Below the pieces are notes generated by a model. It searched no databases and had not been told where the DNA came from. It saw only the letters and a list, made by a program, of their open reading frames with translations. The position numbers were made by a program, and so were the translations under genes. A stretch of DNA of 64,000 nucleotides from an uncultured Methanomassiliicoccales archaeon (GTDB lineage: Archaea; Thermoplasmatota; Thermoplasmata; RBG-16-68-12; JAJISG01): positions 4,685 to 68,684 of the forward strand of contig CAYFYA010000009.1 in the NCBI GenBank assembly GCA_964347325.1, written 5' to 3'. Within the stretch, counting starts at the first letter, position 1. Each line of letters begins with the position of its first letter. Positions 16,099-53,734 of the stretch are shown here, piece after piece.

Positions 16099-16106
16099 TC
16101 ACTCAC

Positions 16107-17492: not shown

Positions 17493-17493
17493 G

Positions 17494-18051: not shown

Positions 18052-18064
18052 CTCGTTCTGGCGC

Positions 18065-18301: not shown

Positions 18302-18317
18302 TCTTTTTCACCTCTTT

Positions 18318-27922: not shown

Positions 27923-28689
27923 GACACTTGGCTAGGAAGCCCTTTGGCGGACTGAGGAAGTACATCTTCGACTGGTTCGCCGAGCGCTTCCCTGTTACAC
28001 CGTGGGCCGAGGCTACCAGGAAGGCCTTCCTCTCAATCCATCGTCAGATGCCCAGGAGCCACGCTGAGAAGTATGAGCTCAAGACCATCTGGTACTGGTA
28101 CCCTCTGTACTGCCTAGGCGGCCTGGCGTTCATTAGTTTCATAATCCTGACGATTACGGGGATAGTCCTGGGGTTCTACTACGTTCCAGACGGCAACATC
28201 CGCATCCTCTCCGATGGGAGCACCACGTCCGGGGCCTATGAGAGCCTCGTGTTCATCATGGGTGAGGTGCCCTTGGGTTACGTCTGGCGCGGCGTCCACC
28301 ACTGGGCTGCACACATCTTCGTAGCGGCCGTCTTCCTCCACATGGCGCGGGTCTACTTCACCGGCGCTTACAAGAAGCCACGGGAGCTCAACTGGATCTT
28401 CGGGATCCTTCTCCTCCTGATCTCCCTCGGGTTTGGCTACACCGGCTACCTGCTCCCGTGGAACAGCCTGGCTTTCGCTGCTGCGACCATTGGCATCAAC
28501 ATGGCCAAGTCGATTCCGATCATAGGGGATCTAACGGCCGAAATCATGTTTGGGGGCCTATCCCTCGGGGCGAACACTGTCCTCAGGATGTACTGGCTTC
28601 ACATATTCGTCCTCCCGCTGATCGGGATTGGACTGATGCTCCTCCACATGACCATCGTCTGGGTTCAAGGAGTGGCCGAACCTCACTGA
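27919..28689 (+). CDS. petB: cytochrome b (b6-like N-terminal heme-binding half)
   Basis: YFTGAYKKPRELNWIFGILLLLISLGFGYTGYLLPW and conserved His in TM helices. GTG start overlapping the Rieske stop. Confidence 0.85.
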   Translation: MRHLARKPFGGLRKYIFDWFAERFPVTPWAEATRKAFLSIHRQMPRSHAEKYELKTIWYWYPLYCLGGLAFISFIILTITGIVLGFYYVPDGNIRILSDGSTTSGAYESLVFIMGEVPLGYVWRGVHHWAAHIFVAAVFLHMARVYFTGAYKKPRELNWIFGILLLLISLGFGYTGYLLPWNSLAFAAATIGINMAKSIPIIGDLTAEIMFGGLSLGANTVLRMYWLHIFVLPLIGIGLMLLHMTIVWVQGVAEPH

Positions 28690-28698
28690 GGTGGAGCA

Positions 28699-30057: not shown

Positions 30058-30068
30058 GGCCGGAGGAG

Positions 30069-31061: not shown

Positions 31062-31468
31062 CGGAGACACAGGCCGTGCACGAGCCGAGACTGGCGCGTC
31101 ACCGCTCCCGTCAGACGGCGAAGAAGAGCTTCGACGAGATGCGGCGCAACTTCGTCATCAAGTATCCGCGCGGGAAGGGCGTGGTGGCCTACGTCTACGA
31201 GGATATCTGCATGGGCTGCATCCACTGCGCAGACAACTGTCCTGAGAACGTTAGGCCCGATCACGAGGATGCCATCGTCTTCACGGACAAGACATCCTAC
31301 TTGCCCGACCTCAGCTTCGAGACGAGAAAGTCCCTAATCGTGGATGAGAACTGCATCGGGTGCGCCAAGTGCGCGGTCATATGTCCGGTGGAGGCCATTG
31401 TCATGGTCCCACGACCAGGCTGGGAGGTCGTGGACGGTCAACCGGTTGAGATGAAGTCGGAGGCGTGA
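31058..31468 (+). CDS. 2x[4Fe-4S] ferredoxin (NuoI-like)
   Basis: CMGCIHCADNCP and CIGCAKCAVICP. The N-terminal FVIKYPRGKG resembles the NuoI TxxYPxEKG region. Confidence 0.7.
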   Translation: MTETQAVHEPRLARHRSRQTAKKSFDEMRRNFVIKYPRGKGVVAYVYEDICMGCIHCADNCPENVRPDHEDAIVFTDKTSYLPDLSFETRKSLIVDENCIGCAKCAVICPVEAIVMVPRPGWEVVDGQPVEMKSEA

Positions 31469-31794
31469 CCTTGGGTGAAGCTGACGAGGTTCATGAGAGG
31501 CCCCGCTGGCCCCGTAAGATGACCCGGAAGGCGGAGATGAGGCTCATCAAGCAGCTCCCGGGTCTCCAGAAGATCATCCTCATCACCAAGGTCTCTGCCG
31601 TCATCCTCTTCGCAATCGGCCTGGAGGGGCTCTTCATAGGGAACTGGTGGATGGCTGGCATCTTCCTCACCCTGGGCCTAATCTTCACGATTTGGCCCAT
31701 CAAGATGGATGTCCCCAACTTGTGTCCCAAGTGTGGGCAGGCGGCCAAGAAGAATCAGACCGTCTGCCACAACTGCGGAGTCGCCCTCATGTAG
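31465..31794 (+). CDS. small membrane protein with C-terminal zinc ribbon
   Basis: Two TM helices then CPKCG...CHNCG. Last gene of the operon. Confidence 0.5.
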   Translation: MTLGEADEVHERPRWPRKMTRKAEMRLIKQLPGLQKIILITKVSAVILFAIGLEGLFIGNWWMAGIFLTLGLIFTIWPIKMDVPNLCPKCGQAAKKNQTVCHNCGVALM

Positions 31795-31801: not shown

Positions 31802-33211
31802 TCAGCCCCTGGGGACCCATAGCAGCCTCGAGGGGTTGATAACGAGAGGTAGATCCACCCTAGCTTTGATCTGACGGACTAGGCCGAAACGCCTCTCAGC
31901 ATCGGCGTCAGGATCCAGGAGATGGATGAGCTGGCTGCTCCGCAGCCTGCACGGGTGTTTCCCGGCAATCTCCAACAGCTCCACGGCGCGGTCGAATCGC
32001 TCACCTCGTCCCGCTCGTTCGGTGACGAAGGGAATTAGGCTGACCGTACCCCCTTCGTGGAGGGAGCCAGCCAGACCAACGGCCGGTCCGCGGACCTCCT
32101 GCCAGCTTGCCAGATCCGCCAGGAGCGGTGGAAGGTCCGCCGTGGAGAGTCGGATTTCTGCCAGGGGGGTCATCCGCGGCTCCCTCGTGACTCCCGATGT
32201 CTGGCCGTAGACGCCGTCCTCTCTCAGAAAACCTTCGCCGAAGGCGGTATCGACGGCCCTTACCTGGGCTCCAAAGGTTTCCTCTGTTCCGTGGAGGAAC
32301 ACAGTCACGTTTTCGCCCTTCCTTTCCGGAGCGTCCCTCGAGGAGGTCGTGTCGCCGAAGAAGACCGCTAAGGGGTGGACTCCAACCCCGGGGATTTTCT
32401 GGAGGGTAGTTCCCACCTCCTCCCAGTCCTTTAGGATGTACGTAAGGGATCTGAGGTCTTCTGCTGAAGGCATCAGCGAGAAGGTCACGGAAAGCGGTAT
32501 GGTAAGACTGCCTCCAGCCAACAGTAGCAACGAGTTCAGGTCGTAGCCAGTCGCGTTGTTGGGTACTTCGTCGAAGCCGCTTTCGCCGTACCCCCCGTCG
32601 GATCCGACGAAGTCCACGTTCCTGATGCAAGTCTCGGGACCTCCTCTGTAAGAGGACAGGATTGTCTCGCCGCGGACGATGTCGCCCATGAAGGAGTCCA
32701 TGGGCAAGGTAGCAAAGAGGGGCAGAAACCAGCCCGCCGCCCTCGCAGCGTCACAGGCGTCGCTCCACCTGGCGCCCACACCGGCTCTAAGGATGCCGTT
32801 CTCCTTGTCGACGTCCACATCGTCGAAGGATGAGAGGTCCAGCAGGAAGCCATCCAACTGTGGGAGGACTTCGCCATCGAAGGGGTCGACCCGTGGAGTC
32901 CAGTCCACGGTGACTTCGCGGTCCCTCATCATCTCTAAGCTCCGGCGGACGTAGTGGAGGGTGTCGCCTTTGAGACCGAGGCTTACAGACGCCACCTCTC
33001 CAGTCGCGACACCGATGGCACTGGAGACGTCGTCCGCCTCTTCCATCGGCAACGTGACAACACTGACGCCATCGAAGAGTCGCTTCAGCTCCTCCGGAAG
33101 TACGCGCCTGTCTCTGAGGTAGAGGGCCTTTGCCTGCTCCGTACTTCGGAGGGTTCTCAATCCAGGCAGGCCAGAGACCATGTCCCTGAAGTCAGCGTAA
33201 GGGATGGGCAA
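31802..33211 (-). CDS. FAD-binding oxidoreductase (divergent GlcE-like subunit)
   Basis: PCMH-type FAD-binding N-domain pattern. Translationally coupled to the upstream GlcD-like gene. Confidence 0.6.
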   Translation of the reverse strand: MPIPYADFRDMVSGLPGLRTLRSTEQAKALYLRDRRVLPEELKRLFDGVSVVTLPMEEADDVSSAIGVATGEVASVSLGLKGDTLHYVRRSLEMMRDREVTVDWTPRVDPFDGEVLPQLDGFLLDLSSFDDVDVDKENGILRAGVGARWSDACDAARAAGWFLPLFATLPMDSFMGDIVRGETILSSYRGGPETCIRNVDFVGSDGGYGESGFDEVPNNATGYDLNSLLLLAGGSLTIPLSVTFSLMPSAEDLRSLTYILKDWEEVGTTLQKIPGVGVHPLAVFFGDTTSSRDAPERKGENVTVFLHGTEETFGAQVRAVDTAFGEGFLREDGVYGQTSGVTREPRMTPLAEIRLSTADLPPLLADLASWQEVRGPAVGLAGSLHEGGTVSLIPFVTERAGRGERFDRAVELLEIAGKHPCRLRSSQLIHLLDPDADAERRFGLVRQIKARVDLPLVINPSRLLWVPRG

Positions 33212-33212
33212 T

Positions 33213-34733
33213 CTACCTCCTCCTTCTGGTCTTGGTCACGTACTTCTCCGAGGGCATCAGCCACCGGAGACGCCCAAGGGCCCTCAAGCCGAACCTCATC
33301 AGGCCGGGGGGTATCTCCGGTGGCACGAGCGGGGGCTTCCTTCCCATGGTCCCCACCAGCTTCCCCCGGTTGACCACGGCCTCGGGGTCGACGGCTTCCT
33401 TGATGGCCCTGAACATCCCACTCACGTTTCCGAACATGGTCTCCAGGTTGTAAGTCATCAGGAGCCCCAGCCCCAGAGGATGGCCCCCCGTATCTGTGAG
33501 AATCCTGTGAAACTTCTCCACGAACGTAATAGCGAGCTGTCCCCGAAGGAGCCTCTCGTTCGTAAGCATGTAGGGGGCCAGGTAGGCCGAACCGCGGTCG
33601 ACGAGGAACCCGTGGAAGGCCACCTCGCCTTTGGACTTCCTTCCGGCCTTCTGAGTGGCCTCCATAACGTGACCCAAGGCGCTCAGGGGCACTAGTCCCT
33701 CCCCGACGACGAGCCCGCCAGAGATTCGCCGCGCATTGTAGGGCTCGTGCCGTCCCTCCCAGAGAGCCGTCGCCACCTCACTGCCCTCCTTCACGCCACC
33801 CGCAGCGGACAGTACCGTTCCAGCGTAGACATCCTCCTCAGCGATGCTCTCCTTGTCCCCTTGGTAGGCCAGGTAGGCCATGGCAGGTCGCTCCGGAAGG
33901 GACTTCCCGATCCCTGCCTGGAGGGTGAGATGAGCACCGTCGACGAACCCGACGTGGTAGGGGGTAATGCAGATTCTGGAGAGTTGACGGAGGGCGCTAA
34001 CGATACTCTGAAGTGACTCGAAGCTGTAGGCGGAGACGCTCGTGGCCTTGGGCCTGGGAATGAGCTGTAAGGTTGCCTTCGTAATCACGCCAAGCGTCCC
34101 CTCAGCGCCCAAGAAGAGGTTCGTCGAGTTGTGGTTTCCCAGACCCAACCCGAAAGTCCGCACACCCGTCTCCAGAATCTCCCCTCCTGGGAGTACGACC
34201 TCGAGGCTCCTGACCCAACGGGAGGGGGGACCGTACATGTATGAGCCTATTCCGACTCCACCGTCGCTGAGGAATCCGCCCACGGTGGAGGACCTGTGAA
34301 GGATTGGGACTACTGGGAGGGCGAGGTCCTGCTCGCCCAATGCCTCGGAGGCCTGATGCCACGTTGCACCCGCTTGGACGGTAACGCACGACCGAATCTC
34401 ATCTGGGTCGTCCACTCTCTTCATCAGGCTGGTGACCATCAGAATGCCCCCGACATTTGGCACTGAACCCCCGTGGAGGGAGGTGCCCCCGCCGCGGGGG
34501 ACGACCGGAATCTCCAGCTCCTCCCCCAGCTGTAGGATCCGAACGACCTCTTGGGTGGACTTGGGCAGTGCAATGATGTCTGGCTTCATGTTGAACTGCA
34601 GGCCAGCCTGCTTCGGGATCGGAGCCAAATCGTGGCCATAGACGAGCTTCTCCGTCTCAGAGGTCGAGACCCGCTCCTCTCCGAGGGTGTCTACGAGCCG
34701 TTTATAAGCGTAGCTAAGGTCGCTGTAAACCAT
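33213..34733 (-). CDS. FAD-linked oxidase (GlcD / D-lactate dehydrogenase family)
   Basis: VVPRGGGTSLHGGSVP FAD-binding motif and the GlcD-like C-terminal domain. Confidence 0.8.
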   Translation of the reverse strand: MVYSDLSYAYKRLVDTLGEERVSTSETEKLVYGHDLAPIPKQAGLQFNMKPDIIALPKSTQEVVRILQLGEELEIPVVPRGGGTSLHGGSVPNVGGILMVTSLMKRVDDPDEIRSCVTVQAGATWHQASEALGEQDLALPVVPILHRSSTVGGFLSDGGVGIGSYMYGPPSRWVRSLEVVLPGGEILETGVRTFGLGLGNHNSTNLFLGAEGTLGVITKATLQLIPRPKATSVSAYSFESLQSIVSALRQLSRICITPYHVGFVDGAHLTLQAGIGKSLPERPAMAYLAYQGDKESIAEEDVYAGTVLSAAGGVKEGSEVATALWEGRHEPYNARRISGGLVVGEGLVPLSALGHVMEATQKAGRKSKGEVAFHGFLVDRGSAYLAPYMLTNERLLRGQLAITFVEKFHRILTDTGGHPLGLGLLMTYNLETMFGNVSGMFRAIKEAVDPEAVVNRGKLVGTMGRKPPLVPPEIPPGLMRFGLRALGRLRWLMPSEKYVTKTRRRR

Positions 34734-37041: not shown

Positions 37042-37519
37042 TGTTGCGAATAATCGGGCGACGTCTTATAAATCCGCGCTGGTCGAGGTTGCACGCTCGC
37101 TGGGAGGCCAAACCAAGGGTCACCGTGAACCATTCTCATGGATGATAATATAGATTGATAATAATAAATGGACCAACATTAATATAGATTGAGTCCCTCC
37201 CCTTAACTGGGCGACATTCTCAGGCCCGTGTAGAGGAGGGAGACCCTGCAGGAAAATGTAAGGATAGTAGATCTCTCGGCGAGCCGAGGCGTGAGGTTTC
37301 CAGGGTGGATGGTTCGCAGGTCCGCGGAGATCTTGGTGAACAATGCTGACCAGCTCTCAACGGGAGAGCTCAGGTCGATAGCCGATGTCCTTCTAAAAGA
37401 GGCCGCAAACCGGTAGGCACCCCTCGGCAGACACGATCGGCGGCTTCCAGTCGGGCATCCATCAGGCCGCTCACCCCTCGTGACAAAGGTTTAATAAATG
37501 GGAACTATAGTCGGCGCGG
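37042..37519. promoter_or_regulatory. 478-bp divergent intergenic region between tatC and nuoA, with TATA-like boxes and a 13-bp direct repeat
   Basis: TTTATAA (minus-strand sense) about 25 nt upstream of tatC. TTTAATAAAT about 25 nt upstream of nuoA. TAATATAGATTGA at 37146-37158 and 37180-37192. About 300 nt of GC-rich sequence with no ORF of 60 aa or more. Confidence 0.4.
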
Positions 37520-37879
37520 ATGGCCCTTGAGCTCTACTATCCAGTCGCAGTTTTCGTGGTCATCGCAATCGCGTTTCCGTTCGTCACCTACTTGGCCACC
37601 AGGCTCCTTCGGAGGGATAGTCCGACACCCCTGAAGCTAACCACCTATGAGTGCGGCGAGGTACCAGAGGGGGAGGCGAATGTCCAGTTCAACTTCCAGT
37701 ACTACCTCTTCGCCATAATGTTCATTGTCTTCGATGCCGCGGCCATCTTCATCATCTTGTTCGGTCTCATCTACGGTGGCCTGTCGGTGCAGGCTCAGAT
37801 TCTCATGGCTCTGTTCATACTGATCATCACAGCGGCCACTCTGTACTCCCTCAAGAAGGAGGAGGTCTACACAGTTTGA
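37520..37879 (+). CDS. nuoA: NADH-quinone oxidoreductase subunit A
   Basis: 119 aa, 3 TM helices, typical NuoA sequence (TYECGEVPEG). Confidence 0.9.
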   Translation: MALELYYPVAVFVVIAIAFPFVTYLATRLLRRDSPTPLKLTTYECGEVPEGEANVQFNFQYYLFAIMFIVFDAAAIFIILFGLIYGGLSVQAQILMALFILIITAATLYSLKKEEVYTV

Positions 37880-37929
37880 GGAGAAGCATGGCGGTTGCTG
37901 GACTGGGCTGTGCACCTGCGGCCTAGGGT

Positions 37930-38388
37930 TTGGGCAGGGATAAAGTGGCCTTTGAGGATGACCTCGTAAAGGACTTGAAGAAGCGGTTCCCCGACGACGT
38001 CAAGGAGGCAACGGTCTCAAGACCTGGCCGGGTGAAGGCCTCGGTGACCCGAGACGGGTTGCGCCAGGTCTGCTTCTTTCTCAGGGAGGAGAAGGGGTTC
38101 GAGCACATCTCGTGCATTTCGGGTGTCGACTGGGTGGATCGCCTGGAGAACATCTACCACATCCTCTCGTACGAGAACGAGTGCATCATTCAGGTCAGCG
38201 TCGAAATTCCCGCAGACGACCCTTCAGTGCCAACAGTCTCGGAGATATGGAAGGGGGCCCTCTTCCACGAGCGAGAGGCCTATGATATGTTGGGGATCGA
38301 CTTTCAGGGCCATCCAGACCTTCGGCGAATCCTGCTGCCGAACGACTTCAAGTTCCATCCGCTGCGGAAGGACTACACGGGGGAGTGA
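37930..38388 (+). CDS. nuoC: NADH-quinone oxidoreductase subunit C (30 kDa)
   Basis: EREAYDMLGIDFQGHPDLRRILLP motif. Follows nuoA directly with no nuoB between them. TTG start. Confidence 0.85.
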   Translation: MGRDKVAFEDDLVKDLKKRFPDDVKEATVSRPGRVKASVTRDGLRQVCFFLREEKGFEHISCISGVDWVDRLENIYHILSYENECIIQVSVEIPADDPSVPTVSEIWKGALFHEREAYDMLGIDFQGHPDLRRILLPNDFKFHPLRKDYTGE

Positions 38389-39473
38389 TCGTGGCTGAGA
38401 CGATGTGGATAAACATGGGTCCACAACACCCCATGACCCATGGCCTGTGGAACCTCCGCATCAAGGTCGATGGTGACACCATCGTCGACGCCGACCCGGA
38501 GATGGGCTACCTCCACAGAGGAGTGGAGAAGATCTGTGAGGCCCGGGATTATCTAAAGCCCATCGTCCTCATGGATCGCCTCTGCTACGTCTCCTCTCTA
38601 ACGTGGGCCCACGTGTACTGCGTCGCTGTGGAGGACCTAATGGGGATCGAACCCCCACCCAGGGCCAAGTACCTGAGGGTCATCGGCTGTGAGCTCCAAA
38701 GGATGTCCTCCCATCTCATGTGGCTCGCCGCCTTTCTTGCGGACCTCGGCCTCCTCACGGGGTTCCTTTACAGCCTGAGGGAGAGGGAGCTCGTCCTCGA
38801 CCTCCTGCAGATGATGACGGGTCAGCGGATGAACCAGAACTACCCCAGGCCAGGCGGTGTCCACAACGACATCCCCCCGAACTTCCGCGATGAGATCAGG
38901 AAGGCCTTCAGGTATCTCCGTCCGAAGTTCAAGGAGTATGAGGACTTCCTTGACAAGAGTCCGACCTTCCTGCTGAGGACGCGAGATGTCGGGATTCTGA
39001 AACCGCAGGATGGCGTCAACTACGGGGTCACGGGACCCAACCTTCGAGGAAGTGGTGTCAGGGTGGACGTCCGGGAGATGCACCCCTATGACGCCTACGA
39101 CGAGCTGGATTTTGAACCAGTGATCTACGAGGGCGGTGATGCCTACGCCCGATATAAGGTGAGGATGGGAGAACTTATGGAAAGCATGAAGCTTATCGAT
39201 CAGGCCCTGGACCGGCTCCCGGATGGTCCCTTCCGTGTCAAGGCGCCGAAGAGGGCGGAGGGGGAGGGGTATGCCATCACAGAGGACGCCCGCGGCGAGG
39301 CCCTCATCTACATCATAGGCGACTCGAGCGATCGGCCGTATCGCGTGAAAATCAGATCTCCCATTTTCGTGACCCTCTCGGCGCTCCCGCTGATGCTCCG
39401 CGGCTATACAGTGGCAGATGTGGTCTCCATCACGGGAAGCATCGATGTCTGCGTGGGGGAGATTGACAAATGA
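38385..39473 (+). CDS. nuoD: NADH-quinone oxidoreductase subunit D (49 kDa)
   Basis: NMGPQHPMTHG N-terminus and typical NuoD length. Confidence 0.9.
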   Translation: MIVAETMWINMGPQHPMTHGLWNLRIKVDGDTIVDADPEMGYLHRGVEKICEARDYLKPIVLMDRLCYVSSLTWAHVYCVAVEDLMGIEPPPRAKYLRVIGCELQRMSSHLMWLAAFLADLGLLTGFLYSLRERELVLDLLQMMTGQRMNQNYPRPGGVHNDIPPNFRDEIRKAFRYLRPKFKEYEDFLDKSPTFLLRTRDVGILKPQDGVNYGVTGPNLRGSGVRVDVREMHPYDAYDELDFEPVIYEGGDAYARYKVRMGELMESMKLIDQALDRLPDGPFRVKAPKRAEGEGYAITEDARGEALIYIIGDSSDRPYRVKIRSPIFVTLSALPLMLRGYTVADVVSITGSIDVCVGEIDK

Positions 39474-40651
39474 GTTTTCCGCTGGTGAACCTCTTCGATG
39501 TGAGCTTCGCCATCACAGACTTCTTGGTGTGGCTCGCAACGGTGATTCTGCGAGCCATCGCCTCCGTCCCTCTGCTAGGATTCATCGGCTACATTGCTGA
39601 CTTCCTCAACTGGGAACCCGTCTTCTCCTTCCTCACTTGGGCCGTGGCAGCCACTCTGATTCTTCTTTGGGCGGCAATTCTCCACCTCTTGATCTTTATC
39701 TGGGTGGAGAGGAAGGTAGCCGCCCGCCTTCAGGACCGCCGCGGACCCATGCTGTCTCAACCCCTCCGGAGGAACTGGTGGAAGGGCACGGGCTTCTTCC
39801 AGGCCATTGCTGACGCGCTGAAGCTGCTCCAGAAGGAGAACATCACCCCCGCCGATGCAGACAAGCGCATGTTCCACCTGGCTCCCGCCCTCCTCATAGC
39901 CTCCACCCTGGTGATCCTCGTGGCCTTGCCCTTCAGTGAGACCTTCGTGATCGCCAACGTCCCGGCCGGGATCCTCCTCATCCTCGCCGCCTTCTCCCTG
40001 ACGCCCATGGCCATCCTCCTGGCGTCCTGGGCTCAGAACAACAAGTACGCCCTCCTCGGCGGAATGAGGGCCGCGGCCATGATGATGTCCTACGAGATTC
40101 CGATGATCCTGGCGACCATCGGCGTCATCATCATGGCGGGCACCCTCAACCCCATCGAGATCGTCCAGGCGCAGCAGACATCTTCGGTCATCGACGTCCT
40201 GGCCAACATAGGAATTCCGAACTGGTTCATCATTCCTCAGTTCCTAGGCTTCTTCATCTTCCTCCTTGCCATAATCGCTGAGACGGAGCGAGTCCCCTTC
40301 GACCTCCCGGAGGCTGAGGAGGAGCTGGTGCACGGTTGGCTCATCGAGTACGGGGGGATGAGGTACGGGATGGTCTTCGGCTTCAAGTGGCTCAGGACCT
40401 TCGTGGGAGCGGCCCTTGTAGCACTCCTATTCCTGGGCGGATGGGACGGCCCCTTCCTCCCCCAGGAGTTCTGGTTCGTGCTGAAGATCTACTTGGTCTT
40501 CTTCGTCTTTATCTGGATCAGCTGGTCGATTCCCCGCATCCGGATTGATCAGATGATGAACCTCGGCTGGAGAAAGCTCATCCCGCTGGCGCTCTTCAAC
40601 ATACTCTTGGCTGTCCTGGTGGCCCTCGCGAATTCCGAGGGGTGGATCTGA
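39470..40651 (+). CDS. nuoH: NADH-quinone oxidoreductase subunit H
   Basis: 8 TM helices with NuoH/ND1 conserved regions. Confidence 0.9.
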   Translation: MSFPLVNLFDVSFAITDFLVWLATVILRAIASVPLLGFIGYIADFLNWEPVFSFLTWAVAATLILLWAAILHLLIFIWVERKVAARLQDRRGPMLSQPLRRNWWKGTGFFQAIADALKLLQKENITPADADKRMFHLAPALLIASTLVILVALPFSETFVIANVPAGILLILAAFSLTPMAILLASWAQNNKYALLGGMRAAAMMMSYEIPMILATIGVIIMAGTLNPIEIVQAQQTSSVIDVLANIGIPNWFIIPQFLGFFIFLLAIIAETERVPFDLPEAEEELVHGWLIEYGGMRYGMVFGFKWLRTFVGAALVALLFLGGWDGPFLPQEFWFVLKIYLVFFVFIWISWSIPRIRIDQMMNLGWRKLIPLALFNILLAVLVALANSEGWI

Positions 40652-40675
40652 TGGTATCGAGGAGGAGGCTGTGAA

Positions 40676-40939
40676 GTGGTCGATGGCCTACTGATTGTCT
40701 TCGTCATTGTCTCCGCCATGGAGGTGATTGCGAGCCTAGCTGTGGTCACCGCAAAGAAGCTCATGTGGGCCGCTTTCTGGCTTGCCATAGCCCTCGTCAC
40801 TATGGCGGGCATATTCTTTCTATTCGAGTCTGAGTACGTGGCTCTGATCCAGATCATCGTATACGCCGGCGCAGTCCCGGTGTTGTTCCTCTTCGGCATC
40901 ATGCTGACCAGGTCGAGGGTCATGGAGGAGGTGCCATGA
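40676..40939 (+). CDS. nuoJ: NADH-quinone oxidoreductase subunit J, N-terminal half (split gene)
   Basis: NuoJ/ND6-like TM helices. Followed by a separate overlapping ORF for the C-terminal half. Confidence 0.7.
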   Translation: MVDGLLIVFVIVSAMEVIASLAVVTAKKLMWAAFWLAIALVTMAGIFFLFESEYVALIQIIVYAGAVPVLFLFGIMLTRSRVMEEVP

Positions 40940-41163
40940 AAGAGAGGATCCTCGTCTTCGTCGGCCTCGTCCTTCTCACGGCCCTGATGGTGCTCTCCTT
41001 CGGTGGTCTGCCCTGGAATCCCGGGGCCCAGACGGTGTCGAACGAGAGCGTCGCAGAGTCGCTCTTTTCGGACTTCGGCCTCGCAATGATCGTTATGGCC
41101 CTGCTCTTGGCCGTGGCCATGGTCGGAGGAGTGTTCCTGGCCAGGAGGGAGCGGGAGCCATGA
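40936..41163 (+). CDS. nuoJ: NADH-quinone oxidoreductase subunit J, C-terminal half (split gene)
   Basis: TM - soluble loop - TM, typical of the NuoJ C-terminus. ATGA overlaps at both ends. Confidence 0.65.
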   Translation: MKERILVFVGLVLLTALMVLSFGGLPWNPGAQTVSNESVAESLFSDFGLAMIVMALLLAVAMVGGVFLARREREP

Positions 41164-41462
41164 TACCCCTCGAATGGGAGCTCTCTCTATCAGCCATCCT
41201 GTTCGCCATAGGCCTCTACGGGGTCCTGGTGCGGAGAAACGGCATCATCGTCCTGATGTCCGTGGAGATCATGCTGGCGGCAGCCATCATGAACTTCGTC
41301 GCCTTCTCAGCCTATATTAACGACCCTTCGGGACAGATACTCGCCCTGCTGTCCATAGCCCTGGCGGCGGGGGAAGCAGCCATCGGACTAGCCATCTTCC
41401 TGGTGCTCTACCGCGTCCACGGCACTGTCGACCTGGATAAGGTGAGAATCCTCAGGTGGTAG
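41160..41462 (+). CDS. nuoK: NADH-quinone oxidoreductase subunit K
   Basis: 100 aa, 3 TM helices, conserved Glu positions (MSVEIMLAA). Confidence 0.9.
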   Translation: MIPLEWELSLSAILFAIGLYGVLVRRNGIIVLMSVEIMLAAAIMNFVAFSAYINDPSGQILALLSIALAAGEAAIGLAIFLVLYRVHGTVDLDKVRILRW

Positions 41463-41463
41463 G

Positions 41464-43539
41464 TTGTCAGCCCTGGCATGGATTGTTGACATCTCGTGGC
41501 TCATCGTGGCCTCACCCCTTCTGGCCTTCGCCGTCGTCCTAATCTCAGGGAAGAGGCAGTGGCAGGGTGGAGCCCTTTGGACCATCGGGTCCATCGGACT
41601 CTCCTTTGTGCTGTCGATGATCCTTCTAATCCACGCCCTCCTCAACGGCGCCCTGGGAGGACACTTCGAGCCTGTGGAAACGGTCTGGTATCGCTGGATC
41701 GGCCCCGAGGGCTCCGGCTTCGCTATTCACCTCGGCATGCTCATCGACAACCTCAGCGTCCTCATGCTGGCCGTCGTCTCCTTCCTCTCCCTTCTCATCG
41801 CGATCTACTCCCTCGGATACATGGGCCGCGAAAAGGACAAGGCCCGCTACTACTCCCAGATCGCCCTCTTCGTCACGGGAATGCTGGGGACGGTCTCTGC
41901 CAACAACTTCCTCCAGCTCCTCATCTTTTGGGAGATAATGGGGCTCTGCTCCTACCTGCTGATCGGCTACTGGTATCATAAACCCGAGGCGGCCAGCGCG
42001 GCGAAGAAGGCCTTCATTGTCACCCGAGTGGGCGACATCATGTTTCTGGCGGGCGTCATCGCGGTCTTCATCATCTTCGGCACCTTCAACATCCTGGAGG
42101 TGTCGAGACTAGCACAGGGGGTTCCGGTACATCTCATCCTCATCGTCCCCGTCCTGTTCTTCGGAGGCGCGATGGGCAAGAGCGCCCAGTTTCCTCTCCA
42201 CGCGTGGCTGCCGGATGCCATGGAAGGCCCCACAACGGTGAGCGCCCTCATCCATGCGGCTACCATGGTGAAAGCCGGCGTCTACCTCACGGGCCGGGCT
42301 CTCCCGCTGGTGGCGAACTCCCTCGACGCCAGCCTCCTGGTGGCCTTCATCGGAGGCTTCACAGCCTTCTTTGCCGCCACCATGGCCCTGGCCAACTACG
42401 ACATCAAACGTGTCCTCGCCTTCTCCACCATCAGCCAGCTGGGCTACATGTTCCTCGCCCTGGGTACCGCGGCCTATGCCATACAGGTCGGCTTGGAGGG
42501 CTCGGGAGAGGCCTATGGAGCGGCCTTCTTCCATCTGACAAACCACGCCTTCTTCAAGGCCCTCCTCTTCCTCGGTGCTGGGAGCGTCATCCATGCCGTG
42601 GGCACCAACGACATGAGGAAGATGGGGGGGCTCCATGCGAAGATGCGCATCACCTCCCTCACCATGCTCATAGGGGCCATTTCCATCAGCGGCATCTTCC
42701 CCTTCAGCGGTTTCTGGAGCAAGGACGAGGTCCTGGCCACGGCCTTTGGTGCCTCGGGGGTGGAACAGACCTTCCTCTTCCTCTGGATCCTGGGGGTCCT
42801 CACCGCCTTCATGACCGCCTTCTACATGTTCCGCCTCTGGTACATGACCTTCCGGGGGTCCCCCCGCTGGGAGACGGAGCCCCACGAGTCGCCCAAGGTC
42901 ATGACCACGCCGCTGATGATACTCTCCCTCTTCGCCGTCGGCTCAGGTCTTGTGATATTCGCGATGGGAGGTTTCAGCAACTTCATCTTTCCGGGGGTAG
43001 AGGGAGCCCATCCAGAGTTCTCGAACCCAGTCGACATTTTACTGAAGACCTTCACTGGTGCCGGGAGCTTCTCGACGTACGTCTCTCTTCTCCTGGCCCT
43101 CGCTGGCCTCGGCCTCGCCAGGACCATCTACCTGCGGAATCGCCCGTCGCCTGACGTCTTCACAGCCACACGCTCCCGGGCCTCCCTACACACGATGCTT
43201 GAGCGGAGGTATTGGATCGACGACCTCTACGATTACATCGGAGCCAAGGTGGTCTACGGCCTGGCGAGGTTGAGCGATTTCATCGACCGCTACATCATAG
43301 ACGGCTTCGTCAACCTGGTGGCCAGGGGAACCGTCTTCACGGGTCGAGGAACCGACATCTTCGATCGGAAGGGTGTCGATGGCGTGGTGAACGGCATCAG
43401 CCTGAGGACCATCAGGGGAGGGTGGACACTACGGCGAGGCGAGACGGGTCAGGTTCAGACCTACGCTGCGATCATCATCCTCGGAGCGGCCTTCGTTCTC
43501 TTCCTGATCCAGGTTGTCTTTCCACTTCTGGGGGTGTGA
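41464..43539 (+). CDS. nuoL: NADH-quinone oxidoreductase subunit L
   Basis: 691-aa antiporter-like subunit with the long C-terminal helix region. Confidence 0.9.
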   Translation: MSALAWIVDISWLIVASPLLAFAVVLISGKRQWQGGALWTIGSIGLSFVLSMILLIHALLNGALGGHFEPVETVWYRWIGPEGSGFAIHLGMLIDNLSVLMLAVVSFLSLLIAIYSLGYMGREKDKARYYSQIALFVTGMLGTVSANNFLQLLIFWEIMGLCSYLLIGYWYHKPEAASAAKKAFIVTRVGDIMFLAGVIAVFIIFGTFNILEVSRLAQGVPVHLILIVPVLFFGGAMGKSAQFPLHAWLPDAMEGPTTVSALIHAATMVKAGVYLTGRALPLVANSLDASLLVAFIGGFTAFFAATMALANYDIKRVLAFSTISQLGYMFLALGTAAYAIQVGLEGSGEAYGAAFFHLTNHAFFKALLFLGAGSVIHAVGTNDMRKMGGLHAKMRITSLTMLIGAISISGIFPFSGFWSKDEVLATAFGASGVEQTFLFLWILGVLTAFMTAFYMFRLWYMTFRGSPRWETEPHESPKVMTTPLMILSLFAVGSGLVIFAMGGFSNFIFPGVEGAHPEFSNPVDILLKTFTGAGSFSTYVSLLLALAGLGLARTIYLRNRPSPDVFTATRSRASLHTMLERRYWIDDLYDYIGAKVVYGLARLSDFIDRYIIDGFVNLVARGTVFTGRGTDIFDRKGVDGVVNGISLRTIRGGWTLRRGETGQVQTYAAIIILGAAFVLFLIQVVFPLLGV

Positions 43540-43542
43540 CGA

Positions 43543-45063
43543 GTGGCTCTCCCCTACATCTCCGCGATGATCGCGCTCCCCGCCCTCGCAGCCCTAGTCT
43601 CGCTCTTGGGACCCTGGAGCCGGACACAGGCTAGGTGGATTGCCATCGGGTCGGCTCTAATCACCTTCCTAATCTCACTGGCCGTTCTCCTATCCGTCAT
43701 TACGCCCTTCCTGGACCTCGGCCTCCAGCCCGACCCGACGGGAACTTTCGTCGCCTACGAGGAATACCTCTGGTTCCGCATAGGGGACCTGCCGGTCTTC
43801 TTCAGAGTTGGCGTCGATGGGCTCTCCCTCCCCCTTGTCTTCCTCACCGGCCTCCTGTTCCTGGTGGCCGTCATCTTCCCTATGGAGGAGGCGTACAAGC
43901 CGAAAGAGTACTACGCCCTCCTGCAGGTCATCAGCCTGGCCCTCATCGGGGTGTTCATTTCCCTGGACTTCCTGCAGTTCTTCGTCTTCTGGGAGCTCGT
44001 CCTGATACCGATGTACTTCCTCATCAACATCTGGGGAGGTCCGAACAAGCACTACGCCGCCATCAAGTTCCTGATATTCACCCACGTGGGCGGTGTCATC
44101 ATGCTCGTCGGGATCTTCTTCCTGGTCTCATCGACGGGGACACTGAACATGATCGAGATCATCCAGCGAGCCCCGCTACTTCCTCTTTCTCTGCAGGTGA
44201 GCGCCTTCGTGGCCTTCCTCATAGGCTTCGGCGTCAAGCTTCCCATGGTTCCACTGCATACCTGGCTACCGGACGCTCACGTGGAGGCCCCTACAGCCGG
44301 TTCGGTCATTCTGGCCGGCGTCCTGCTAAAGATGGGAGGGTACGGCATCTTCCGCGTAGCTTACTCCATGCTCCCTGGCGCAGCGGTGGAACTGTGGTGG
44401 CTGGTGGCCATCCTGGGCGTTGTGAGCATGATATATGCATCTTTGGTCTGCCTCGCCCAGGTCGACTTGAAGAGGCTCATAGCCTACTCAAGCATCGGCC
44501 ACATGGGGTTCGTCCTTCTCGGAGCTTCGACCATTACCGCTGTCGGCGTCGCCGGAGCGATCTTCCAGCTCTTCAACCACGGCCTCGTGACGGCCGTACT
44601 GTTCATGCTTGCGGGGGCGGTGAAGCACGCAACGGGAAGCCGTCTGATTCCCCACCTCAGGGGCCTGGGATCCAAGATGCCCATCTTTGCCTTCATCCTC
44701 ATCCTTAGCTTCCTGGCCTCCCTCGGGCTGCCAGGCCTCAACACCTTTGTCAGCGAATTCATGGTCTTCGTCGGCACTTATGCAGGACTCCCCGAGGGCC
44801 AGAAGATCCTAGTGATCATTCCGCTCCTCGCAGTAGTCCTCGCCGGCGCATACTACCTCTGGACCATGCAGCGAGTCCTCATGGGTAGCTTCAACGTCCG
44901 GTTAGGAGCCGCCAGGGATCTGCACCTCGACGAGTACCTCCCGATGGTGCTGGTGGCTGTTCTCATAGTCCTGACGGGTCTCTTCCCCGCCATCTGGATC
45001 GACCAGATCTACCCATTTAGCCAGGTCATCGAGGGGTCCGTAGCTCTGGCAGGAGGTGGATGA
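43543..45063 (+). CDS. nuoM: NADH-quinone oxidoreductase subunit M (copy 1)
   Basis: PMVPLHTWLPDAHVEAPTAGSVILAGVLLKMGGYG antiporter signature. Confidence 0.9.
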   Translation: MALPYISAMIALPALAALVSLLGPWSRTQARWIAIGSALITFLISLAVLLSVITPFLDLGLQPDPTGTFVAYEEYLWFRIGDLPVFFRVGVDGLSLPLVFLTGLLFLVAVIFPMEEAYKPKEYYALLQVISLALIGVFISLDFLQFFVFWELVLIPMYFLINIWGGPNKHYAAIKFLIFTHVGGVIMLVGIFFLVSSTGTLNMIEIIQRAPLLPLSLQVSAFVAFLIGFGVKLPMVPLHTWLPDAHVEAPTAGSVILAGVLLKMGGYGIFRVAYSMLPGAAVELWWLVAILGVVSMIYASLVCLAQVDLKRLIAYSSIGHMGFVLLGASTITAVGVAGAIFQLFNHGLVTAVLFMLAGAVKHATGSRLIPHLRGLGSKMPIFAFILILSFLASLGLPGLNTFVSEFMVFVGTYAGLPEGQKILVIIPLLAVVLAGAYYLWTMQRVLMGSFNVRLGAARDLHLDEYLPMVLVAVLIVLTGLFPAIWIDQIYPFSQVIEGSVALAGGG

Positions 45064-46614
45064 GTGGTGGAGATACCAATTCTAACCATCATGCTCTTCG
45101 CCCCCCTGTTCGGGGTTCTCCTGACCTACGCCCTGGGCGAGCGGAGAGGTGCGGTTAGGGTCGCCTCGGTTGTCGTCTCACTTGTTCCCCTGGCGCTCTC
45201 AATCTATCTCCTCTTTGGCTTCCTTCGACCCGACCTGTTTTCACTGGCCACCGACCCCCTGACGGGCCGATATCGCGCCTACGAGGAGGCCCTTTGGATA
45301 CCCCACATCAACGTCTTCTACCGCCTCGGCGTGGACGAGCTCTCCTTCTCTCTTGTCCTGCTAACGGCGATCCTGGTCCCCCTGGCGGTGATATTCTCCT
45401 GGGACGAGGAGCACCGCGTGCGGGAGTTCCACGCAATGCTTCTCCTGATGGAAACCACTATCCTCGGAGTCTTCATGGCTCTGGACTTTTTCCTGTTCTT
45501 CATCTTCTGGGAGCTGCAGCTCGTCCCGATGTACTTCCTGATAGCGATTTGGGGTGGTCCCAGGAGGAGGTACGCGGCGATCAAGTTCTTCCTTTACACG
45601 CAGGCGGCGAGCTTACTGGTTCTCGTCGGTGTCTTCGCGTTCTACTTCTACATGGGAGGCGGAGTCGACGCCTTCAACATGATTGCCATCATCGAAACCT
45701 CCCCCGTTCCGGTCGGCACTATCCAGACGGTCCTCTTCGTCGTTCTCCTGATAGGCTTCGGGACGAAGCTCCCGATGGTGCCGCTGCACACTTGGCTGCC
45801 GGATGCCCATGTGGAGGCTCCGACGGCGGGCTCGGTCATCCTGGCCGGCGTCCTCCTAAAGATGGGAGGCTATGGCCTGATCCGCGCCAACGTCCAGATG
45901 CTACCCCAGGCCTCCGTGGAACTCTTCTGGCTCTTCACCATCATCGGAACGATCAGCATCCTCTACGGCGCCTTGGTCTGCTTGGCGCAGGACGACCTCA
46001 AGCGTCTCATTGCCAACTCGAGCATTAGCCACATGGGGATCGTCATGTTGGGAATCGGGGCCTCCCTCTTCGCCTTCGACCAAGGCGCCGGGGGCTCCCT
46101 CAGCGGCCTCATGGGGATGAGCGGCGCCATCTTCCAGATGTTCGCCCACGGGCTGATTAGCGCTGCCCTCTTCATGCTCGCAGGCTCCGTCCTCCATCGA
46201 CTCGGCACTAGGAACATCTCGGAGCTCGGGGGAATCGCGAACCGAGTCCCAGTGCTGTCTGCGTTCATCTTGACCGCCTTCCTGGCCTCCCTCGGCCTCC
46301 CTGGCCTCGTCGGATTCGTGGCCGAGTTCACCGTCTTCCTGGGCACCTACGAGGCCTTCGGCCTCTGGGTCCTTCTCCCCATATTGACCGTGGTCCTGAC
46401 GGCCGCCTATTACCTCTACGCCGTCCAGCGAGCCGTCCATGGACCCTTTAACGAGAGGCTTGGCTCGATCAAGGACATCTCGCTCTATGAGTTCCTCCCT
46501 CTGGGCGCACTGGCGGCCCTCTTCGCCCTCTTCGGCATCTTCCCGACGCCGCTAATGGATCTCTTCAGTGACTGGACCAGGGTGCTCTTCGAGACAATCG
46601 GGGGGATGATCTAG
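45064..46614 (+). CDS. nuoM: NADH-quinone oxidoreductase subunit M (tandem paralog, copy 2)
   Basis: Same PMVPLHTWLPDAHVEAPTAGSVILAGVLLKMGGYG motif. The flanks have diverged from copy 1. Confidence 0.85.
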   Translation: MVEIPILTIMLFAPLFGVLLTYALGERRGAVRVASVVVSLVPLALSIYLLFGFLRPDLFSLATDPLTGRYRAYEEALWIPHINVFYRLGVDELSFSLVLLTAILVPLAVIFSWDEEHRVREFHAMLLLMETTILGVFMALDFFLFFIFWELQLVPMYFLIAIWGGPRRRYAAIKFFLYTQAASLLVLVGVFAFYFYMGGGVDAFNMIAIIETSPVPVGTIQTVLFVVLLIGFGTKLPMVPLHTWLPDAHVEAPTAGSVILAGVLLKMGGYGLIRANVQMLPQASVELFWLFTIIGTISILYGALVCLAQDDLKRLIANSSISHMGIVMLGIGASLFAFDQGAGGSLSGLMGMSGAIFQMFAHGLISAALFMLAGSVLHRLGTRNISELGGIANRVPVLSAFILTAFLASLGLPGLVGFVAEFTVFLGTYEAFGLWVLLPILTVVLTAAYYLYAVQRAVHGPFNERLGSIKDISLYEFLPLGALAALFALFGIFPTPLMDLFSDWTRVLFETIGGMI

Positions 46615-48165
46615 GTGGCCTTCCCCGATTGGTTCGTCCTGCTACCGGTCATCGTCCTGACGGTCTTCGGGTTCCTCCTCATAGGCCTCACGTTCGTAGT
46701 CAAGCGGAAGGAGAGGCTGGCGGATGTCGCTCTCGTTGGGCTAGTAATCGCCTTCCTTCTGACCATCGACATGGCGGGAGCTGACTTCCTGAGGAGGCTG
46801 GGCCTGGACCTATGGACCGTCCCCGTTGAGGTCAGGCTGCCGGACCTTATGCTGGAGGTCAACGCCTTCGTCCTGTTCTTCTTCCTGGCCATGACCCTCA
46901 CGGGTATCCTGGTGGTCCTGGCTTCCAGGGCGTTCCTGAGGAGGGATGACAGGAATCAGGGAGAGTACTACGGGCTCCTCCTCATCGCCATCGTCGGGAT
47001 GATGCTGGTCTCGGCCTCCACGGACATCTTCGTGCTCTACCTCTCCTTCGAGTTGGCGAGTATTGCCACCTTCGCGCTGGCGGCCTTCAGGAAGAGGGAC
47101 AAGGGGTCTTCCGAGGCGGCCATGAAGTTCTTCATCATAGGCGTCGTCAGCTCCGCTCTCATCCTCTTCGGCATCTCCCTTCTGTACGGTGTAAGCGGTC
47201 ACGTGGGGACCGGTCAAGGCATGTCTGGTCCCTTCACCGACTTGGGCGTCCTTCGGACCACCATCGCCGGCGGCCTCCTTGTCTTCGAGCCAGTCATAGT
47301 GCTGGCGCTCGTCCTCGTTATCGCGGGGTTCGGGTTCAAGGTGGCAACGGTGCCCTTCCACATGTGGGTGCCGGACGTCTACGAAGGCGCGCCGACGACA
47401 ATCACCACCCTCCTGAGTACGGCCTCGAAGATCATGGGCTTCGCAGCCCTCTTCAGGGTCTTCCTCATAGCCCTCGTAGGGGCAGCAGCCCACTGGACCC
47501 TCGCCCTGGGAATCCTCGCCATCGCCACCATGACCTTAGGGAACGTTGCCGCCCTTCCGCAGAAGAGCATCAAGAGGATGCTGGCCTACTCCAGCATCGC
47601 CCACGCCGGCTATGTCCTCATCGCGGTCATCGTGGGCAGCCATCCCGATGGCAGCGTCGCCACCTCCGCCATGACGGGAGGCCTCTACCACCTCCTCGTC
47701 TACGTCTTCATGAAGGGAGGCGCCTTCATCATCGTCGCTATCACCGGGACGCTCCTAATCGGGGAGAGGCTCGACGACTACAGCGGCCTGGCGAAGAGGA
47801 TGCCCCTCATAGCCTTCGGGATGATGATCCTGCTACTCTCTTTGGCGGGTGTCCCACCTCTAGGCGGCTTTGTCAGCAAGTTCGTGCTCTTCCTGTCGAC
47901 GATTCAAGCTTCGACGGTCCCAGGCACCGAGTGGATGGTCGCCCTGGGTATCGCAGGCGTTCTGAACAGCGCCCTTTCCCTGTACTACTACGCCCGAGTA
48001 ATCAAGCACATGTACTTCCTCGAGGGGCCTGGCGGGGTCGTCACAGCTCCGGCGCCCTACAGCTTCGCCATAATGATCGCTACAATCGGGACCGTCGCCA
48101 CTGGAGTTCTTGCCCTGCCCTTCATGGAGTTTGTCAGCCAGGCGGCGTCCTCTCTTTTCGCGTAA
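46615..48165 (+). CDS. nuoN: NADH-quinone oxidoreductase subunit N
   Basis: VPFHMWVPDVYEGAPTTITTLLSTASK NuoN signature. Confidence 0.9.
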   Translation: MAFPDWFVLLPVIVLTVFGFLLIGLTFVVKRKERLADVALVGLVIAFLLTIDMAGADFLRRLGLDLWTVPVEVRLPDLMLEVNAFVLFFFLAMTLTGILVVLASRAFLRRDDRNQGEYYGLLLIAIVGMMLVSASTDIFVLYLSFELASIATFALAAFRKRDKGSSEAAMKFFIIGVVSSALILFGISLLYGVSGHVGTGQGMSGPFTDLGVLRTTIAGGLLVFEPVIVLALVLVIAGFGFKVATVPFHMWVPDVYEGAPTTITTLLSTASKIMGFAALFRVFLIALVGAAAHWTLALGILAIATMTLGNVAALPQKSIKRMLAYSSIAHAGYVLIAVIVGSHPDGSVATSAMTGGLYHLLVYVFMKGGAFIIVAITGTLLIGERLDDYSGLAKRMPLIAFGMMILLLSLAGVPPLGGFVSKFVLFLSTIQASTVPGTEWMVALGIAGVLNSALSLYYYARVIKHMYFLEGPGGVVTAPAPYSFAIMIATIGTVATGVLALPFMEFVSQAASSLFA

Positions 48166-52848: not shown

Positions 52849-53085
52849 ATGGGACCTTCATCGAGCCTGTTTGACCTCCAGATCCACTCTGCAGAGGAAG
52901 CCGAACGATGGATTCTCGTCCTAGTCCAGGCCCTGCGACAGAAGCGGAAGGAGTGGAGGCTCACGATCGCGCATCTGAACGGGGAGGTCCTGTGCTTTGA
53001 GTGTGAGCCCGCGCTAACGAACGATGAGGTCTCGGAGGCCCTGCTCACGCGGCTCGTCCCGGAGCAGAAGCCGGAGGTACCCTGA
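52849..53085 (+). CDS. small hypothetical protein (78 aa) between the receptor and GTPase genes
   Basis: ORF in the divergent intergenic region with no recognisable domain. Possibly a co-transcribed partner of the GTPase. Confidence 0.35.
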   Translation: MGPSSSLFDLQIHSAEEAERWILVLVQALRQKRKEWRLTIAHLNGEVLCFECEPALTNDEVSEALLTRLVPEQKPEVP

Positions 53086-53152
53086 GCAATGTCTCCGATT
53101 CGATAATCAACGGGAAAACTACAATAATGGCACCTGGAAACCAGATCTCGGG

Positions 53153-53734
53153 ATGGTGGCGTCGACGCTAGCGACACTGGAAGAGCCTCGAATGAAGCTC
53201 AAGATATGCATGGTTGGCGAGGCCGCCGTTGGAAAGACATCTCTCATCCGTCGCTACGTCCACGATCACTTCAATAGTGACTACGTGGCGACTCTGGGTA
53301 CTAAGGTTACGAAAAGGGAACTCGAGGTTGAGGTTCCCGGAACCGATCGCACAGAACGTGTCGCCTTGATGATCTGGGACATTATGGGCCAGAAGAAGGT
53401 CCTGGATCTGATGCGTGAGGGGTACTTCCACGGTGCGCAGGGGTTGCTGATGGTTAGCGATCTGAATCGTCCGAAGACTCTGGAGGAGCTCGAGGGCTGG
53501 CGCACCATGATGGTAGATACAACGGGTGAGATTCCGTCCTACCTCTTGGCCAACAAGGTGGATCTGGTGGAGAAGGAGCCCACGACGGACGACCTCGACG
53601 CAGCGAAGAAGCGGTGGGGCTGCTCCTACGTGCTGACCAGTGCCAAAACGGGGGAAGGAGTGGAGCAAGCTTTCTATGATCTTGCTGTCTTGATTCTCAG
53701 GAAGCTCCGAGAGCGGAAAGCCAAAAGGGCCTAG
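53153..53734 (+). CDS. Ras/Rab-like small GTPase (paralog 3 of 3)
   Basis: MKLKICMVGEAAVGKTSLIRRYV, YVATLGTKV switch I, WDIMGQK, NKVDL, TSAKTG. Start at ATG 53153 or 53192; the ORF-track extension to 53024 was rejected. Confidence 0.85.
   Translation: MVASTLATLEEPRMKLKICMVGEAAVGKTSLIRRYVHDHFNSDYVATLGTKVTKRELEVEVPGTDRTERVALMIWDIMGQKKVLDLMREGYFHGAQGLLMVSDLNRPKTLEELEGWRTMMVDTTGEIPSYLLANKVDLVEKEPTTDDLDAAKKRWGCSYVLTSAKTGEGVEQAFYDLAVLILRKLRERKAKRA

Follow-up and report, generated by a model that had tools for sequence, protein, structure and literature searches.

A four-antiporter complex I operon of Ca. Angelarchaeales-type Thermoplasmata with nuoB and nuoI probably encoded at a separate locus

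A form of complex I with a fourth antiporter-like subunit, the "2M" complex I, was reportedly described by Chadwick and colleagues in 2018, who are said to have taken a lengthened lateral helix (HL) of NuoL as the signature of an extra subunit that forms part of the assembled enzyme. Two NuoM-type genes per cassette characterize this enzyme in Candidatus (Ca.) Angelarchaeales and in ammonia-oxidising Nitrososphaerales (Diamond et al. 2022, PMC9038741). The complex I of Ca. Angelarchaeales has the additional M subunit and no NuoE, NuoF, or NuoG, with ferredoxin suggested as a possible donor, and a complex III locus, which includes hdrD-like and rnfB-like genes, is often located together with the complex I and V/A-type ATPase genes (PMC9038741). 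Here we consider a complex I operon at positions 37520-48165 of a 64,000-nucleotide stretch of archaeal DNA (assembly GCA_964347325.1, contig CAYFYA010000009.1; "the window" below refers to this whole 64-kb stretch). The operon is another member of the 2M complex I already described from Ca. Angelarchaeales-type Thermoplasmata. It shares with that complex the two NuoM-type genes, the lack of NuoEFG, and a lengthened NuoL HL, here by a duplication of 26 residues, and the host order and the neighboring complex III-like and V/A-type ATPase loci match as well. The layout of the window from 12 to 48 kb agrees with the description of Ca. Angelarchaeales by Diamond et al. 2022. The host, a Thermoplasmata archaeon of soil type, belongs to this order (GTDB RBG-16-68-12) or stands beside it. 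The difference from the published complex is that nuoB and nuoI stand outside the cassette, probably as a separate bicistronic unit.

The best explanation of the locus, to which we assign a probability of about 0.85 for all its parts together, is that nuoB and nuoI have moved out of the operon and have not been lost. The window would then hold the scaffold of a 2M complex I that is free of iron-sulfur (Fe-S) clusters, nuoB and nuoI would form an overlapping gene pair elsewhere in the genome, and the products of both loci would make up one NuoEFG-less enzyme with four pumps. Relocation of the two Fe-S subunit genes is apparently unreported; nuoB and nuoI (K00331/K00338) are not mentioned in the main text of Diamond et al. 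2022 (PMC9038741) or in its supplementary text as far as covered, which for one file was in part.

Open reading frame (ORF) calling and profile searches against Pfam and NCBIfam gave the gene order nuoA-C-D-H-J(N)-J(C)-K-L-M-M-N. A first-pass annotation, made from the letters of the sequence, had read the same order with a gap of 50 nt between nuoA and nuoC and one of 24 nt between nuoH and nuoJ, and the profile assignment of every ORF bears out both the order and the gaps. The remaining junctions range from -4 to +3 nt, with ATGA overlaps between the two nuoJ ORFs (J1 and J2) and between J2 and nuoK. The operon encodes every membrane subunit of the 11-subunit complex I core (NuoA, H, J, K, L, M, and N). 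The TATA-like box TTTAATAAAT is a putative archaeal promoter, from which the nuoA transcript would be leaderless or near-leaderless.

Absence of nuoB and nuoI from the operon, as that annotation had it, extends to the entire window. A Thermoplasmata NuoB query gave no tblastn match in the 64 kb at E<10, and the NuoB motifs CCxxE and GCPP occur there in non-coding frames only. No hidden or fused NuoB was found by motif and tblastn searches, which included the extended N terminus of NuoH and the spacers. NuoI queries returned from the window only the level of similarity expected of generic 2x[4Fe-4S] ferredoxins. The statement that nuoEFG is missing also stands, with no nuoEFG-like gene among the approximately 60 window ORFs scanned against Pfam and NCBIfam.

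The two genes are found in relatives. A NuoB search from a canonical relative led to a 90% cluster whose members include the NuoB of Euryarchaeota archaeon RBG_16_68_12, the genome that gave the order of Ca. Angelarchaeales its GTDB name, RBG-16-68-12. In that genome, nuoB (218 aa) overlaps the gene of a 274-aa four-cluster ferredoxin; TFIIB, TrmB, and MetE-like genes flank the pair, and no further nuo gene lies within 10 kb on either side. A second search, with the RBG_16_68_12 NuoB as query, revealed a stand-alone NuoB family of 212-225 aa. In the metagenome-assembled genome (MAG) K_3_bin.4 (GCA_046758325.1, whole-genome shotgun project JBHHZZ01), whose NuoD is 83% identical to that of the window, contig 2 (L012; comparison loci carry L numbers) has a complete 2M operon lacking nuoB and nuoI (B/I-less), and contig 7 (L029) has TFIIB, a divergent TrmB gene, nuoB (224 aa), and nuoI (270 aa), the latter two overlapping by 41 nt. 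An F420-dependent LLM oxidoreductase gene directly follows nuoI in L029. In GCA_035488635.1, contig 323 holds the genes of TatC and a Mo-oxidoreductase together with nuoA-nuoC-nuoD, and contig 050 holds nuoB-nuoI; in GCA_975963595.1 the same pair is followed by FeS_assembly_P, a rubrerythrin-like gene, an HdrD/TfrB-like gene, and sufCBDS-nifU.

The surroundings of the pair are partly conserved (L029 7547-15165, L021 7887-16886, and L022 718-9741). TFIIB and a divergent TrmB-family regulator precede it in L021 and L029, whereas FeS_assembly_P, a rubrerythrin-like gene, and a 381-386-aa Fer4+CCG (HdrD/TfrB-like) protein follow it in all three loci, with sufC-B-D-S-nifU next in L022. The first-pass annotation had reasoned that nuoB must be "encoded elsewhere or replaced"; the first of these options is what close relatives exhibit, with both genes intact and without a conventional NuoEFG partner module. 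In the organism of the window, nuoB and nuoI are thus probably also encoded elsewhere in the genome.

Both relocated proteins are recognized by the models of their families. The relocated NuoB scores 195.6 bits with NF005012 (cutoff 116) and 179.5 bits with TIGR01957 (cutoff 142.7), and all four cysteines of cluster N2 are present in its CCxxE, GECxxCGG, and PGCP motifs. The relocated NuoI scores 135.7 and 145.4 bits with TIGR01971 (cutoff 113.05). Thermoplasmata NuoI proteins of 245-300 aa, in-operon and relocated alike (L019 12162-12899, L021 10632-11456, and L029 10635-11447), have four CxxCxxCxxxCP motifs, that is, the two canonical cluster motifs and a whole extra C-terminal 2x[4Fe-4S] domain. 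An electron donor might dock, or its electrons enter, at this extra domain.

The arrangement seen in the window is not confined to it. On the basis of a scan of one genome per species and context look-ups, the A-C-D-H-J1-J2-K-L-M-M-N order recurs with the same upstream neighborhood in at least 10 species-level Thermoplasmata MAGs from different studies. The shared neighborhood comprises cytochrome b, a 452-aa FeS protein, a CCG protein, a ferredoxin, a Zn-ribbon protein, two GlcD-like genes, TatA, and TatC. The window NuoD has a 100%-identical database entry, identity to the B/I-less relatives runs from 92% down to 62%, and the relatives are named as Thermoplasmata or "Methanomassiliicoccales" MAGs. 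Because the architecture is reproduced in independent assemblies, we consider it to be real and not an assembly error.

The nearest canonical relatives have the order A-B-C-D-H-I-J1-J2-K-L-M-N, with NuoD identities to the window of 59% (L019), 69% (L020), and 62% (L030). This comparison indicates that nuoB and nuoI were cleanly excised from an ancestral canonical operon and that the second nuoM is a derived feature. Across A, C, D, H, J, and K, the subunits of this canonical Thermoplasmata Nuo/Fpo-like operon are orthologues of those in the window, with 50-57% identity. Its nuoJ shows the same split, its NuoI is likewise extended to four CxxCxxCxxxCP motifs, and it encodes no NuoEFG or FpoF. 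It differs in having a single NuoM, no HL insertion, and nuoB and nuoI inside the operon. The finding that nuoJ occupies two ORFs, made in the first-pass annotation, holds, but not its status as an anomaly calling for read mapping: the ORFs are joined by an ATGA overlap, and since the same split, into 87 and approximately 76 aa, is present in canonical L019 and L030, it is an ordinary trait of the lineage rather than a frameshift. In some relatives nuoM2 or nuoL is found in two ORFs (L001 16687-18187, L002 7469-9522, and L008 6836-8898), and these are probably assembly frameshifts. The window's own nuoL and nuoM genes are intact.

Both tandem nuoM copies are full length, as first read, and each scores well above the cutoff of the family model (Table 1). 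Identity between the copies is 47-50%, and to the only NuoM of a canonical relative it is about 47%. M1 and M2 each have an orthologue set that persists throughout the clade, and the duplication is therefore old. Glutamate in transmembrane helix (TM) 5, lysines in TM7 and TM8, and glutamate in TM12, which we take to be equivalent to Glu144, Lys234, Lys265, and Glu407 of Escherichia coli NuoM, are kept in both copies, within the motifs FWE, GxKLP..H.WLPDAH, LLKMGGYG, and F(V/I)(S/A)EF. The HL insertion of NuoL is a tandem duplication of a D(F/I)(I/F)DRxx(I/V)DGxVN segment and is present in five of the five 2M NuoL sequences aligned but absent from L019, a relative with one NuoM. At about 1.5 Å per residue, 26 amino acids would span about 39 Å, or roughly the width of one antiporter subunit. 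The window NuoD carries the quinone-site motifs GPQHPMTHG and DRLCY, which presumably map to His38 and Tyr87 of Thermus thermophilus Nqo4. In an alignment with the canonical relatives, GPQHPxxHG and RLCY are invariant, and this indicates selection for a redox-active quinone site that still works with a partner bearing N2.

We propose that the locus supplies those parts of an archaeal 2M complex I (no NuoEFG, four antiporter-like subunits) that are free of Fe-S clusters, namely the scaffold A, C, D, H, J1, J2, and K and the subunits L, M1, M2, and N, and that the only two cluster-bearing core subunits, NuoB (N2) and NuoI (N6a/N6b and the extra C-terminal 2x[4Fe-4S]), have moved out. Thirteen polypeptides from two loci would assemble into one quinone reductase without NuoEFG. 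The likely donor, following the proposals cited in PMC9038741, is ferredoxin in its reduced form or some other carrier of low potential; its electrons would be taken up by the four clusters of NuoI and handed on to N2 in NuoB. The membrane quinone would be reduced in the pocket between NuoD, NuoH, and NuoB, and a conformational and electrostatic wave could then drive the E-channel and N, M, M, and L, tied together by the HL that is longer by 26 residues, so that about five instead of four protons might be moved per two electrons. The first-pass annotation had named no electron-input module; ferredoxin is a candidate donor, and no NuoEFG partner has turned up.

Several points weigh against this proposal. 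For the window's own organism, the nuoB-nuoI pair is carried over from relatives; the binning of MAGs could in principle mis-assign contigs, though four assemblies agree; and the electron donor and the H+/e- ratio are predictions. Moreover, the canonical operons of L030 and L031 are as close to the window operon as are the most distant B/I-less loci, and a second, canonical operon could exist in the same cells. These operons (L030 222-6448 and L031 36-4831) have the order nuoA-B-C-D-H-I-J1-J2-K-L, with subunits 55-57% identical to the B/I-less ones, and could either come from a sister lineage or encode an additional complex I of these organisms. In a neighbor-joining tree of NuoD, a canonical lineage is nested inside the B/I-less clade, and in a neighbor-joining tree of seven concatenated subunits monophyly of the B/I-less loci has a bootstrap value of only 50%; these trees fit a single relocation as well as repeated ones. 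Linking L001 with L031 as parts of one MAG through GCA_012974945.1 was rejected, as with more than 44,000 contigs this is a metagenome assembly.

That NuoB and NuoI might be borrowed from such a second canonical operon, instead of or besides a stand-alone pair, is a reading we consider unlikely. The canonical operon does exist, branches beside the B/I-less ones, and shares a metagenome assembly with L001, but co-occurrence in an assembly of that kind is uninformative about one genome, the stand-alone pair is directly seen in two MAGs with a B/I-less operon, and the stand-alone NuoB forms a family of its own. We give considerably less weight to a complex truly devoid of NuoB and NuoI, in which the RnfB-like ferredoxin at 31058-31468 and the HdrD-like CCG protein would replace the Fe-S subunits of the quinone module. 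The 64 kb without nuoB or nuoI and the conservation of this ferredoxin and CCG protein about 6 kb upstream in all relatives would fit such a replacement. However, the ferredoxin scores far under the NuoI cutoff (25.7 versus 113 bits) and sits with cytochrome b genes, four opposite-strand genes away from nuo; the window holds no candidate with a NuoB-like fold; and relatives with an orthologue of the ferredoxin also carry a bona fide nuoB-nuoI pair elsewhere, including the relative with 83% NuoD identity.

Even less probable is a scaffold acting with no redox module at all, be it an Mrp-like cation/proton antiporter or a transporter independent of redox chemistry. Its antiporter-like subunits are homologous to MrpA and MrpD, and no Fe-S subunit is co-transcribed with it, but NuoC, NuoD, and NuoH are present, the quinone-site residues of NuoD are invariant, MrpE/F/G are absent, and relatives retain an intact nuoB-nuoI with all cluster ligands. 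The least credible alternative, which we practically dismiss, is an artefact in which mis-assembly removed nuoB and nuoI and a sequencing error split nuoJ. Although the source is a MAG and some relatives have a frameshifted nuoL or nuoM (L002, L008, and L001), the same junctions recur across studies, in more than 10 assemblies made independently, the genes are tightly coupled, with ATGA overlaps on both sides of J2, and nuoJ is split in canonical operons too.

Relocation of nuoB and nuoI, the explanation preferred here, can be compared with what is known from more distant relatives of the enzyme. Cyanobacterial and chloroplast NDH-1 likewise has an 11-subunit core without NuoEFG and uses ferredoxin as donor, and its core genes are dispersed (ndhC-K-J, ndhA-I-G-E, and ndhH), showing that a split gene organization is compatible with one enzyme. 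The best match of the window NuoL is NdhF1 of 6hum. NDH-1 nevertheless belongs to another lineage, has the oxygenic-specific subunits NdhL-S, and lacks a second NuoM in its respiratory form, and the partition in the window differs from that of NDH-1 in that exactly the Fe-S subunits are set apart from the rest. The core is also homologous to that of the Fpo and Fpo-like complexes of Methanosarcinales and Methanomassiliicoccales, and Fpo-like complexes without FpoF have been proposed to accept electrons from ferredoxin (Welte & Deppenmeier 2011, cited in PMC9038741). An F420H2 dehydrogenase Fpo was ruled out, as all Fpo-specific NCBIfam models stay under their cutoffs (bits versus cutoff: FpoD 383/600, FpoC 117/220, FpoH 271/475, FpoK 130/145, and FpoL 543/1050); fpoF and fpoO are absent from the window, with no FpoF-like gene among the ORFs scanned. 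A group 4 membrane-bound [NiFe] hydrogenase (Mbh/Ech) was excluded because the window NuoD, with the C terminus DVCVGEIDK, contains no CxxC, and an Mrp antiporter because NuoC, NuoD, and NuoH are present and Pfam and NCBIfam gave no matches to MrpE/F/G.

Table 1. Features of the nuo operon and of other genes in the window
Feature	Position	Strand	Evidence or remark
TATA-like box TTTAATAAAT	37490..37499	+	about 21 nt 5' of nuoA ATG; read from sequence
nuoA, 119 aa	37520..37879	+	PF00507, 78 bits
nuoA/nuoC spacer, 50 nt	37880..37929	+	site of nuoB in canonical relatives (L019, L020, L030: NuoB 176-215 aa)
nuoC, 152 aa	37930..38388	+	PF00329, 142 bits; TIGR01961, 127.9 bits (cutoff 122)
nuoD, 362 aa	38385..39473	+	NF004739, 419.8 bits (cutoff 360)
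nuoH, 393 aa	39470..40651	+	PF00146, 348 bits; NF004741, 327.5 bits (cutoff 305)
nuoH/nuoJ spacer, 24 nt	40652..40675	+	site of nuoI in canonical L019, L030 (NuoI 245 aa)
nuoJ, N-terminal half, 87 aa	40676..40939	+	PF00499 profile positions 2-63; ATGA overlap with next ORF
nuoJ, C-terminal half, 75 aa	40936..41163	+	PF00499 profile positions 78-146
nuoK, 100 aa	41160..41462	+	PF00420, 98 bits
nuoL, 691 aa, lateral helix HL extended	41464..43539	+	NF005141, 596 bits (cutoff 556); alignment
NuoL HL insertion, 26 residues, aa 618-643	43315..43392	+	NuoL alignment
nuoM copy 1, 506 aa	43543..45063	+	TIGR01972, 470 bits (cutoff 264)
nuoM copy 2, 516 aa	45064..46614	+	TIGR01972, 508 bits (cutoff 264)
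nuoN, 516 aa	46615..48165	+	TIGR01770, 346 bits (cutoff 333)
Complex III-like locus	26073-31794	+	conserved in all relatives
Cupredoxin (blue-copper)-like membrane protein	26073-26900	+	
TAT-signal Rieske-like protein	27173-27922	+	
Cytochrome b6-like protein	27877-28689	+	
452-aa protein	28699-30057	+	cytochrome b subunit IV-like N terminus (PDWY motif), TM helices, C-terminal 2x[4Fe-4S]
HdrD-like CCG protein	~30072-31061	+	
RnfB-like ferredoxin	31058-31468	+	
Zn-ribbon membrane protein	31465-31794	+	
Two GlcD-like FAD-linked oxidase genes	31802-34733	-	between complex III-like locus and TatA
TatA, 155 aa	34789-35256	-	
TatC, 570 aa	35329-37041	-	TatC domain, residues 10-242 only; C-terminal half without family assignment
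DUF255/thioredoxin-like protein, 618 aa	48110-49966	+	3' of nuoN; C-terminal region weakly epimerase/glycosyl-hydrolase-like
V/A-type ATPase operon	12323-20360	-	
Second GlcD-like gene and GlcF/HdrD-like Fer4+CCG gene	55282-59314	+	beside beta-oxidation genes
Three Ras/Roc-family small GTPase genes	42-608; 11620-12195; 53024-53734	+	PF00071, 100-118 bits

The RnfB-like ferredoxin of the complex III-like locus (Table 1) contains the sequence FVIKYPRGKG, for which it had been put forward as a possible displaced NuoI. That assignment does not survive. With TIGR01971 the protein scores 25.7 bits against the cutoff of 113.05, its best matches are RnfB-type and generic Fer4 models, and in K_3_bin.4 its orthologue coexists with a genuine NuoI. 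The profile score and the conserved context together rule the candidate out: its gene belongs to a co-directional, tightly spaced run with cytochrome b and HdrD-like genes, is kept there in every relative, and is separated from nuo by four opposite-strand genes. A description of the fusion of subunit IV and ferredoxin in the 452-aa protein was not seen in Diamond et al. 2022, who mention hdrD-like and rnfB-like genes.

Other genes of the window are listed as observations in their own right. TatA and TatC lie directly upstream of nuo in divergent orientation, a position kept in relatives. On the 3' side, the longest version of the DUF255/thioredoxin-like ORF overlaps nuoN by 56 nt; a later true start is probable, and its position is the same in relatives. 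The beta-oxidation genes beside the second GlcD-like gene encode an acyl-CoA dehydrogenase, a thiolase, and an enoyl-CoA hydratase/3-hydroxyacyl-CoA dehydrogenase.

It is tempting to ask whether the separation of nuoB-nuoI is functional, with the pair serving as an independently regulated redox "cartridge" rather than having been set apart by accident. The thought comes from the neighborhood of the pair in relatives, where it adjoins the divergent TrmB-family regulator and lies upstream of Fe-S assembly genes and the HdrD/TfrB-like protein, and we regard it as speculative and rather doubtful. Were it true, the cartridge might be tuned to iron or oxygen status or be shared between 2M and canonical scaffolds, and the HdrD-like partner could be an alternative electron input or output.

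Overall, the finding is real but largely ordinary. A complex I lacking NuoB would overturn the accepted coupling mechanism, and this locus is not such a case. Completeness tools that consider only the operon will report NuoB and NuoI as missing from Ca. Angelarchaeales-like Thermoplasmata despite the separate pair. One archaeal lineage combines the gain of a fourth pump, the duplication of 26 residues in the tether helix of NuoL, and the excision of exactly two Fe-S genes. This combination is a natural example of the modularity of complex I and could help to examine whether regulation of the Fe-S module is separate from that of the scaffold.

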